Part shown: piece by piece, positions 9,870 to 12,800 of the stretch
Layout: each line of letters begins with the position of its first letter
Position numbering within the stretch: position 1 is the first letter of the stretch
Source: Escherichia phage WPEC6
Length of the DNA: 64,000 nt
Sequence record: PV763039.1
Direction: 5' to 3' (one strand)
Position numbers and translations under genes: made by a program
The notes under the pieces: model-generated
The model's database searches: none
What the model saw: only the letters and a program-made list of their open reading frames with translations
What the model was told of the DNA's origin: nothing

Positions 9870-12800
9870 CTAGTGACAGGACGCCCAGGAATTACCCACA
9901 TCGTATCCGGCAGTAAGCTGAACGTTAAGATTGTAAAATTCTCCAGCCTTGGTAACAGCTAAAGCGGCAAGTTCACCTGCCCGACTATAGGCTGTAAACC
10001 ATCCACCTTTGGGAGATTCATGAATGTTAGCCCAAATTTGCCCTGTCTCTTTTTCCTTATTATGCTTCCATTCTTCGACTTTAGCAAGGCATTCTTTATC
10101 AATTTTCTTTTGTTCTTCAGGATCGTCTACTTTCTTCCAACCTAATGATTCCGGTGAAAACCATTTGAATTCTACAAGGTTACGAGAAACTTCAAGCTGG
10201 GCTTCATCGTGATATGCAATCATTTGTTGCACGAAGTCTTTATTCTTCCAGTCATCTTTAAAGAAGTCAACACTTAGCCCTTCTTCTTCGATCATGTCAT
10301 CATAAATAACCATTGCACGTTTAGCACAGATAACCCCACCGCTTTGGAACAGAGAGTTAAGAATCGCGTGAGCAGAACGAGTAGGAACCTTACGACCGTC
10401 AATACCCAAAACATATTGTTTACCAGTCTTAACCCAGAAATCGTTTAAACGTTCTTTAAGACGCGCCAATGGGAATGCAGCTTCCCAGAAAGCATCGAAC
10501 ACCAATTGACCTGTAAACTTGTCGCTACCAATTGTTTTAGCAACCTTGTCGGCTTGTGCACCATAGGTAATACCATACTTAACAGATTTAGCAGGACTAC
10601 GTTCAAATTTACGTCCAATAGTTTCAGTGATACGTTTTGCCATCATTGTGTGAACATCATTAGGTTTCTCTAACAACAGAGCGTTACAATATTCGTGTGG
10701 CTCCGGCTCGTACCGCCAACAGTTTCCTGTGATGGTAATGCAGTCTTTCTGACGCATGACCCACGTACCAAGTTCTGTTTGTGGACACCAAACATCCTCT
10801 ACACCCCACTCTTCAATAGTCAAACTTTGAACAGGAATGTGAGAGCGGTTAGTCAATGTTGCCACTTTTACTTTCTGCTCTTTTGTATTGAAAGCTACAG
10901 AGATATTGCCTCCATGCACCAGGTACGAGGCAGTTAAAGCTGCTTCAAAAAGTTCACCTGGGTTCTGCGCCCAACGCCAAACAGGTTTTTGTTTATGTTC
11001 GTGCCAGTAACCATCTGCAATCAAGAAACCTTCCAAGAAAGCTACACGCTCGGCATGAGACATATTGACTACACGTTCTACCCACGGAACATCCCATTTA
11101 CCTTGTTGAACAGAAGTTAAACTATTTACCTGATCTTGTTCCATGTTAAATGGAGCATTACAAATAATGTTATCTCCTGTGCAAAGCTCGGCAGTTGTTC
11201 TGACTTTAGGCACATAAGTATTCCCTTTACTACGGGTATTAACATACCAACGGTGATCTGCTGTTGCACGGTAAGTGTGTGATTTCCCTTTAATCTCAAA
11301 CGTCTTACTATTTTTATAGAAGACCTTACCTTTTACTTTAGTCCATTCTTTCAGACCTGTTTCAGCATTGTACCCTAAAATCTCATCCCCTTCCTTCAGG
11401 TCGTGATATCCTACCCAACCTTTACGAGTCAAAGCTTGAGCATCCATCGGCACACAGTAATGCGATTCAATTTTTGCTTCCAAAGAGTCGAAGTCGTAGC
11501 CGATCTGGAAGTATTTAGGAACCTCTACACCAAACAAGTTACGCATCTCCCATCCAAACAAAGATGTGACACGAGGAATATTAGCTACAGATCTATGTTT
11601 CATACGAGAGGTTGCAGCATCACATGTAGCGGCTGGGGTAGGAATACGACCATCCGCCCTTACTGCGGCTAAGAAACCTTTATCGTATTCTTGATCTTCT
11701 TCATCTTCTTCCCAATCAGCACCACCACCTAAAATAGAGTTCCTACGATGCTTATACGTTAAGTATTCTACAATCTGTGTAGCATAAGGAAATTTCTCAC
11801 CCAAAGCTTGCAGGTTAGGACAAATTTCTTTTTCCTGACCTTTGGTAAAACATGGGTTAGTCAATACTTTAAGACCGCGACCTTTACCTTTTGCTATACG
11901 CTCTTGAATCTTCCTTTCCAAGGTTTCCGGTGTGCACTCCAGATGATCACAACGGTCCTGACAAAAATTAGAAGATAGAGTTTGCTCAACGTAAGCTCGA
12001 ATACCTTTCTGAAGTTCTTCCTCACTCTTTTTAATCTTTGTGCCAGATTTAAGCGTCAAGTCTTTATCTTTATATTCAGACGGTACCCAACCTAATCCTA
12101 CAAGCCAGTTTTTAATATGGGTAGTATCGTTCAATGTTGCAGGGATATTAGGATCACACAAAGGCTCATCTGCTGCAACTGGCAGTTTCCACTCTTTCCC
12201 CAACATCACTAACCACCAATCCCCATCCCTCTCTTCCAAATGACCATCATGTTTCTTAGCAAAATTGATCATATGGTTAGTTGGCTCTAAGTTCTTTTTA
12301 ATTTGCAACTTAGGTGGAATAAAAGCCTTAAGATAACCTTTTGTTGCTGGTTTAGGTGGCAAAATAGGCTCAACGAGTAAACGAAGACGCTCCATTTCTG
12401 CATCCAAAAAAGCAAGGTTCTCTTCTGCTTGCTTCATGTTAAAAGCAAATCCACGGTGTTCCTGGCGTGTAATAATGTCTGCTACACGTTGTTCAAGTTC
12501 AAACGGACCTTCCCATTTATCATAATCACCCCATTCTTCCATAAGGTAATTATATACACTCGTGTTGGCTTTGTTGTCATAGATACAGTAATAAAGCATA
12601 TCCGCAGCAAAAGTCTTAAAGCGATCTTCTTCTGGAATTTCTTTACGAAAATCTATTTTTACATCACCACCTGCCTTTCGAGAAAGTGCTGCCAAGCTAT
12701 GTCCTGATTTGCCCTCAATCTTTCGATCTGGGTTTAACACTTTACTCAAAATCAGGGAGTCAATAAGTTTTACCTTATTTTTGCCCCACGTGTTATATTT

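Follow-up and report, generated by a model that had tools for sequence, protein, structure and literature searches.

A probable mobile intein combining an N-terminal cysteine, the class 3 triplet and a single LAGLIDADG domain in the DNA polymerase of Escherichia phage WPEC6

The family A DNA polymerase gene of Escherichia phage WPEC6 (sequence record PV763039.1) carries an insert of 245 codons which is, very probably, a functional, spliced and mobile intein. It lies in a stretch of 64,000 nucleotides, which is referred to as the window in the following. The intein as such is not new, since it is of a known kind that is already annotated in sister genomes. By contrast, three features of the variant family to which it belongs have, to the extent of our searches, not been described together: an invariant first cysteine (Cys1) combined with the residue triad of class 3 inteins, a rule for glycine at the penultimate position, and a single LAGLIDADG domain that is under selection.

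WPEC6 is a phi92-like E. coli myophage (Stephanstirmvirinae; Phapecoctavirus-like), and its polymerase gene is 100% identical in the Escherichia phages WPEC1, WPEC2 and WPEC4. The region is spanned by only one long open reading frame (ORF), which scores above the Pfam DNA_pol_A gathering score of 34.3 both with the insert (43.8 bits) and without it (51 bits); upon removal of the insert, the two matching stretches become one contiguous stretch across the junction. The parts of this gene are as follows.

9870..13202, minus strand: ORF of the family A DNA polymerase precursor, 1110 amino acids (aa), GTG start, stop codon at 9870-9872; 865 aa once spliced
11457..13202, minus strand: coding part of the N-extein, 582 aa, with the 3'-5' exonuclease region and the polymerase through the end of motif A
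11457..11495, minus strand: polymerase motif A, DFDSLEAKIESHY, assigned by the established Pol I pattern DYSQIELRIMAHL and abutting the intein with its last residue
10722..11456, minus strand: intein, 245 aa from Cys1 to Asn245, precursor residues 583-827
10719..10721, minus strand: Cys+1, the first C-extein residue and predicted splice-junction nucleophile
9873..10721, minus strand: coding part of the C-extein, 283 aa, which holds motifs B and C
10560..10601, minus strand: polymerase motif B (O-helix), RSPAKSVKYGITYG

The length of the insert follows from a comparison with a gene that lacks it. It begins with CVPMDAQ right after ...AKIESHY and ends with ITITGN, after which comes the Cys codon 10719-10721. 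The polymerase of phage Schickermooser, which is intein-free and 865 aa long, reads ...AKIESHY directly followed by CWRYEPEP (that is, AAAATTGAATCACACTAC joined to TGTTGGCGATACGAG) and has exactly 245 codons fewer at an otherwise unchanged junction, with a DNA identity to the window polymerase of 97.3% on the N side and 98.5% on the C side. The gene has matches in 128 phage records. The insert is present in 33 of them; in the closest of the others (97.6-98% identical), the alignment is broken into two pieces with the insert left out. A conserved structural insertion was considered and rejected, because the segment is precisely absent from close relatives.

An earlier reading made from the sequence alone (the sequence-only reading) had placed an intein at 10722-11456, between motifs A and B of a polymerase about 250 aa longer than expected, and described a Cys after ...AKIESHY, a TxxH block, a LAGLIDADG-type sequence and an ITITGN end followed by another Cys. 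The ORF translation confirms these coordinates to the base, the described ends are borne out, and both TADH (T65-H68) and the LAGLIDADG-type sequence (residues 139-150) were located. The excess over Schickermooser is exactly 245 aa, and the alignment to intein-less polymerases that had been proposed as a check removes exactly residues 583-827. Motif A indeed adjoins the insert and motif B lies downstream of it, yet the statement that removal joins motif A directly to the O-helix holds only on the motif A side, as the motif B lysine is found 45 residues past the junction.

The fold and the relatives of the insert identify it as an intein. An AlphaFold2 model of the whole insert (predicted local distance difference test score, pLDDT, 83; predicted template modelling score, pTM, 0.83) displays a beta-rich Hedgehog/intein (HINT) body with an inserted helix-strand module. 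In a Foldseek comparison with the PDB, all 46 matches at E<=0.001 are inteins or HINT-fold relatives (hedgehog and bacterial intein-like, BIL, domains), including VMA inteins, PI-SceI, mini-inteins and hedgehog, with a best E-value of 4e-8. A word-indexed homologue search returned just nine relatives, and the family profile built from these and the insert was used for an exhaustive search of a protein library of 1.84 billion representatives, where matches below an E-value of 0.001 comprised 8177 protein clusters, and those below 1e-30 comprised 577. In the GenBank records of PaulScherrer/Bas60 (MZ501100) and SD2 (PQ821640), the same gene is annotated as 'intein-containing DNA polymerase precursor'. 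The mature peptide assigned to the PaulScherrer intein (L001:2504-3238) is one codon off (VPMD...TGNC instead of CVPMD...TGN), since Cys flanks both ends and the boundary is ambiguous by comparison alone. Most of the listed sister-phage records label the gene simply as DNA polymerase or hypothetical protein. A description of the polymerase intein was not found in the literature searched; a 2024 paper states that inteins in coliphages are unreported (PMC11162368), and the BASEL paper mentions merely that inteins were annotated.

Taken together, the excision polymorphism, the HINT fold, the family profile and the sister-phage annotation bear out the sequence-only reading that the insert is an intein. 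The search with intein hidden Markov models which that reading had suggested turned out less favourable, and its results count against our interpretation: the insert scores 16.6 bits (E=0.007) with Pfam Intein_splicing, below the gathering score of 35.8, and 12.8-14.6 bits (E=0.15) with LAGLIDADG_3, for which the cutoff is 22.5. In addition, a scan against NCBIfam gave no match, and phmmer found nothing better than E>0.07 among the PDB sequences. The missed Intein_splicing threshold reflects the sensitivity of the model and not a defining property of inteins. Nevertheless, such scores are what one might expect of a dead intein, or of a non-splicing insertion domain that the polymerase tolerates. 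We regard this as highly improbable: the splicing residues described below are all intact and invariant, the HINT fold is present, purifying selection is strong, the insert sits directly after motif A of the active site, and an intact ORF is present in 34 records that stem from isolated phages with complete genomes deposited, including phi92 and PaulScherrer. From these intact ORFs, and from a splicing-proficient relative (see below), we infer that the insert is excised and the exteins are ligated. The residues on which splicing would depend are located in the following blocks.

11409..11456, minus strand: block A, CVPMDAQALTRKGWVG; Cys1 is the codon 11454-11456
11247..11264, minus strand: block B core, TADHRW, with Thr65 (position 7 of block B, B:7), His68 (B:10) and Trp70 (B:12)
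10722..10796, minus strand: blocks F and G, DVWCPQTELGTWVMRQKDCITITGN, with Cys224 (F:4, 10785-10787), Thr243 (G:5), Gly244 (G:6) and Asn245 (G:7)

None of the intein-defining residues (C1, T65, H68, N245 and C+1) is missing, and all of them except C+1 are invariant in a conservation set of 125 full-length relatives from the exhaustive search, which are mutually less than 50% identical. In this set, Cys1, Thr B:7, His B:10, Cys F:4, Thr G:5 and Asn G:7 are found in 125 of 125 inteins, Trp B:12 and Gly G:6 in 124 each, while the +1 residue is Ser (60), Cys (34; also in the window) or Thr (31). Another 39 inteins of the family, which differ in insert size, have Cys1 throughout (39/39) and Cys F:4 with one exception (38/39), which brings the totals to 164 of 164 and 163 of 164, respectively. 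The exception is the second of the inteins in P0047, where F:4 is Ala but Cys1 is kept; the converse was never seen, and a search for counter-examples masked by alignment truncation found none. The insert belongs to a large and mostly phage-borne family with the invariant set Cys1, Thr B:7, His B:10, Trp B:12, Cys F:4, Thr G:5, Gly G:6 and Asn G:7.

The Gly-Asn terminus, which the sequence-only reading considered unusual and a possible source of atypical chemistry, is, by this conservation, the rule of the family and no defect. This is consistent with the behaviour of the related recombination directionality factor (RDF) intein of mycobacteriophage Bethlehem, which also ends in Gly-Asn: it splices completely in E. 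coli, the G316H mutant is slow and takes more than 5 h to reach about 50%, and Gly in the penultimate position outperforms His (Kelley et al. 2016; PMC5050341). Instead, what sets the family apart is a complete class 3 triplet alongside an invariant Cys1. Trp70, Cys224 and Thr243 form the full Trp-Cys-Thr (WCT) triplet at the positions that define class 3 inteins (B:12, F:4 and G:5; PMC2807308), and the distance of 21 residues from Cys224 to Asn245 is identical to that in the proven class 3 MP-Be intein, with which it is in register (MP-Be was recovered from Bethlehem gp11 and verified against the published residue numbers). Two other marks of class 3 are missing, namely the non-nucleophilic first residue, as Cys1 is present in 164 of 164 inteins, and, in the window, the usual Ser or Thr at +1 (to which one exception is known), as this residue is Cys.

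Which cysteine starts the reaction can be weighed from these residues and from the nearest structures. In a comparison of the family profile with the PDB, the best matches are the NrdJ-1 and DnaX inteins, which we take to be class 1; the atypical class 3 intein AceL NrdHF (5.5e-4) is the sole class 3 intein matched, and the canonical class 3 structures 6bs8 and 6rix are not reached at E<=1. The Foldseek comparison lists class 1 and class 3 inteins together, and neither the fold nor the PDB-profile comparison discriminates between them. Since the one member without Cys F:4 keeps Cys1 and the reverse was never seen, Cys1 would be the indispensable nucleophile. Its invariance, the retention in the F:4-less relative and the profile matches to NrdJ-1 and DnaX instead of canonical class 3 inteins lead us to favour, with some confidence, a reaction that is started by Cys1 and in which Cys224, Trp70 and Thr243 form an essential auxiliary site. 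The complete triplet and the 21-residue spacing weigh against this reading and may point to a class 3 or mixed route. In a pure class 3 route, Cys224 would attack the N-terminal junction to give a branched intermediate at block F and pass the N-extein on to Cys+1, while Cys1 would be catalytically dispensable and kept for another reason, for instance a regulatory disulfide. This would account for the (near-)invariance of Trp B:12, Cys F:4 and Thr G:5, and the spacing recurs not only in MP-Be but, by the published numbers, also in Msm DnaB-1 (Cys118, Asn139) and Mle DnaB (Cys124, Asn145) (PMC5222942). Furthermore, 3 of 37 listed WCT inteins begin with Ser or Cys (Tori et al. 2010; PMC2807308), and later reviews say of class 3 that a nucleophile at the N-terminus 'is not required' (PMC5222942). 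Proven class 3 inteins, however, start with Ala, Pro or similar residues, a pattern that is hard to reconcile with Cys1 in 164 of 164 relatives with less than 50% mutual identity and with its persistence in the relative that has lost Cys F:4; the Cys at +1 and the lack of profile matches to 6bs8 and 6rix speak against this route as well. We therefore consider it improbable and assign what the two routes leave to a relay between both cysteines.

The second part of the insert, the helix-strand module within the HINT body, is a LAGLIDADG domain with the following elements.

10821..11105, minus strand: inserted single LAGLIDADG domain, residues 118-212, alpha-beta-beta-alpha-beta-beta
11007..11042, minus strand: LAGLIDADG helix, AFLEGFLIADGY, residues 139-150; Asp148 is the codon 11013-11015
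10965..10967, minus strand: Gln164, nearly invariant and aligned with Gln42 of I-DmoI

The sequence-only reading had called this part a remnant, but it is a complete domain in the form that is normal for the family, with conserved catalytic residues and under strong purifying selection. Modelled alone with 50 relatives, residues 118-212 yield an alpha-beta-beta-alpha-beta-beta unit (pLDDT 92), which is the core LAGLIDADG fold, whereas no second unit of this kind was found in residues 88-133, so that the insert holds one domain and not two. Asp or Glu is found at position 148 in 122 of the 125 relatives, Gly149 in 123 and Gln164 in 123, so that both residues, the metal-binding Asp/Glu and the Gln of the active site, are kept in 98%; a profile alignment pairs Gln164 with Gln42 of I-DmoI, which serves in the active site of that enzyme. 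Only one of the 125 relatives has a residue other than Gly, Ser or Ala at position 143, as expected of a tightly packed LAGLIDADG helix. The 157 proteins returned contain 126 stretches that align without a break to all 237 positions of the profile (median length 251 aa), and the form of about 245 aa with one LAGLIDADG motif is therefore the family norm.

Selection on this domain is evident from two comparisons. Relative to the intein of Klebsiella phage KP13-16 (77% identical in DNA, 90.6% in protein), the domain differs by 45 synonymous and 12 non-synonymous changes, with a non-synonymous divergence (dN) of 0.055 where synonymous sites are saturated. Relative to PaulScherrer, its ratio of non-synonymous to synonymous divergence (dN/dS) is about 0.04, a constraint equal to that on the splicing domain. 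A decaying endonuclease was accordingly rejected, based on these values and on the conservation of the catalytic residues. Moreover, the family includes mini-inteins of 142-163 aa without the LAGLIDADG domain, one of which (P0005) corresponds to P0002 minus precisely the endonuclease domain in the same extein. The splicing fold hence does not need the domain, and the selection on it does not stem from splicing.

A single LAGLIDADG domain alone cannot cut both DNA strands, and if this one is a nuclease, it would thus act as a homodimer in the manner of I-CreI. To our knowledge, every characterised intein endonuclease, PI-SceI and PI-PfuI among them, has two LAGLIDADG domains, and a single-motif LAGLIDADG inside an intein was not reported in the collection of literature searched. 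Two motifs are found in the sister inteins of nepoznato, KIL1, Twinkle and Pinkcreek; of these, the nepoznato intein was aligned, and the window motif falls on its second one. From the structural and evolutionary analyses, we give an active dimeric endonuclease about an even chance. The difficulties with it are that the DNA around the insertion site is no more palindromic than background (at most 5 of 11 positions, the 95th percentile), which lends no support to a symmetric homodimer site, and that WhiA, a non-nuclease, is among the top structural matches of the domain. LAGLIDADG folds can indeed be non-catalytic DNA binders, as WhiA exemplifies. It is conceivable, though less probable, that the domain is an inactive relic or a non-catalytic module, either structural or DNA-binding like WhiA, and that the intein spreads by ordinary recombination or with the help of an endonuclease acting in trans. 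The one domain in place of the usual two, the target without symmetry above background and the Pfam scores below threshold fit this picture, and the same genome has a free-standing single-motif LAGLIDADG ORF at 39012-39554. What makes the relic less attractive than an active dimer is that the metal-binding Asp/Glu and the active-site Gln persist in 98% of 125 diverged relatives, that the low dN/dS concerns a domain with which the mini-inteins dispense, and that the intein has recently moved between genera.

This movement is recorded in a comparison with PaulScherrer, which belongs to Justusliebigvirus. The DNA identity is 72.6% in the N-extein and 79.0% in the C-extein, but 92.0% in the intein; in windows of 150 nucleotides, it reaches up to 98% within the intein and drops within about 150 nucleotides on each side. 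Likewise, the synonymous divergence (dS) amounts to 0.45 for the intein, as against 1.63 for the C-extein. These sequence patterns are the signature of a recent intergenus transfer with short co-conversion tracts. Over larger distances, the same motif A site is used in the polymerases P0028, P0032 and P0055, which read ...HY before the intein (C...N) and T(Y/W)(K/R)YDNG after it. The family occupies at least two further polymerase sites, motif B and a site that precedes the motif SPNMAQ(I/V)P. Its other hosts are a primase-helicase, a portal protein and an abundant protein with the intein between ...DVYP and SAYANGWA. The latter, in the form (F/Y)DVYP-intein-SAYANGWA, is the commonest host among the top matches (P0003, P0004, P0006, P0010-P0013 and many others); P0010, the sole host of this kind that was scanned, has no Pfam match. 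Several metagenomic proteins (P0025, P0029, P0057, P0075, P0118, P0137 and P0157) contain at least two family inteins each.

Two further observations concern mobile elements and the records in which they are found. The ORF at 39012-39554 (minus strand, 180 aa) has one LAGLIDADG motif (FYAYYAGCIDCDGS...NLTQHE), with a LAGLIDADG_3 score of 20 bits, slightly under the Pfam cutoff, and a C-terminal helix-turn-helix/Myb-like domain. It is a 'hypothetical protein' or unannotated in 25 of the 25 records listed and is found at >=90% identity in 17 records only; nepoznato retains just the last 35 residues, and relatives exist in RB16, RB43, KP27 and Pectobacterium phages. By its sequence, it resembles the gene of a mobile homing endonuclease that has escaped annotation. 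In addition, the 146 kb 'Campylobacter phage' records A150, A145, C3 and A110a (MG065639, MG065645, MG065656 and MG065689) carry a nepoznato-type polymerase intein and score the same as E. coli phi92-like phages; they may have a wrong host label or represent contaminant phages.

Among known systems, the closest are the inteins of PaulScherrer and SD2, which share the insertion site and 97.6% amino-acid identity and are known by annotation only. The nepoznato and Pseudomonas phage KIL1 inteins belong to the same family (that of nepoznato is 32% identical), have the same splicing residues and likewise reside in a family A polymerase, yet they are 324-331 aa long, have two LAGLIDADG motifs and are inserted in motif B. 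In nepoznato (MN850571, L003:2501-3472), the intein of 324 aa follows KSVKYG, 50 residues downstream of the window site; it reads C...TGN and is followed by Cys, which replaces Ile, while the position of the window insertion site has Thr and not Cys. The Bethlehem RDF intein, a family-profile match at E=1.9e-14, resembles the window intein in Cys1, T..H, Cys F:4, the Thr-Gly-Asn end and the 21-residue spacing, but has 317 aa, a different host protein and Val instead of Trp at B:12; its endonuclease is toxic in E. coli (PMC5050341). Class 3 inteins (MP-Be 'DnaB'/TerL, Msm DnaB-1 and Mch DnaB-1; Tori et al. 2010) share the WCT triplet, the Cys-to-Asn spacing and the association with phages. They differ in that they lack an N-terminal nucleophile and usually have a His-Asn end and Ser or Thr at +1, where the window has Cys1, Gly-Asn and Cys+1, and no specific profile similarity was found between the window family and the canonical class 3 structures. 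Finally, I-CreI, I-CeuI and I-MsoI are homodimeric single-motif enzymes, free-standing and intron-encoded, whereas the window domain, for which a dimer is predicted, spans about 95 aa, lacks their C-terminal helices and lies inside a HINT domain.

On this basis, we propose the following course of events. The precursor of 1110 aa would be translated, and the HINT domain of 245 aa would remove itself, joining Tyr582 to Cys828 and thus yielding a polymerase of 865 aa, the form that is directly encoded in sister phages without the intein. Cys1 would start the reaction by an N-S acyl shift and the N-extein would be passed to Cys+1, before Asn245 cyclises without a penultimate His; Cys224, Trp70 and Thr243 would constitute an essential auxiliary site that replaces the usual Asp at F:4. 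The excised intein may then dimerise via its LAGLIDADG helix, as I-CreI and I-CeuI do, and the dimer may cut intein-free polymerase alleles of co-infecting phages, and repair would then introduce a copy of the intein (homing).

A class 1 origin for the inteins of class 3 is disputed, and the features of this family bear on the question of divergence versus convergence. In the account of their work given in PMC3196547, Tori and Perler trace class 3 to an ancestral phage intein of class 1 from which the first nucleophile was lost, whereas Beyer et al. (2020) argue that the path from class 1 to class 3 needs several simultaneous changes and suggest convergence (PMC7664689). That Cys1 and the whole class 3 triad are both indispensable across a large phage family, and that the endonuclease is at the same time the first intein-borne single-domain LAGLIDADG enzyme in need of dimerisation, is a combination we consider rather unlikely to hold in full. 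If the single domain is active as a dimer, it would represent a very compact homing module of about 95 aa, and natural target sites for it would be numerous in polymerase, helicase and portal genes. An abundant natural family with Cys1 and the full WCT triad, represented in a phage able to grow on E. coli K-12, renders the origin of class 3 inteins directly testable.

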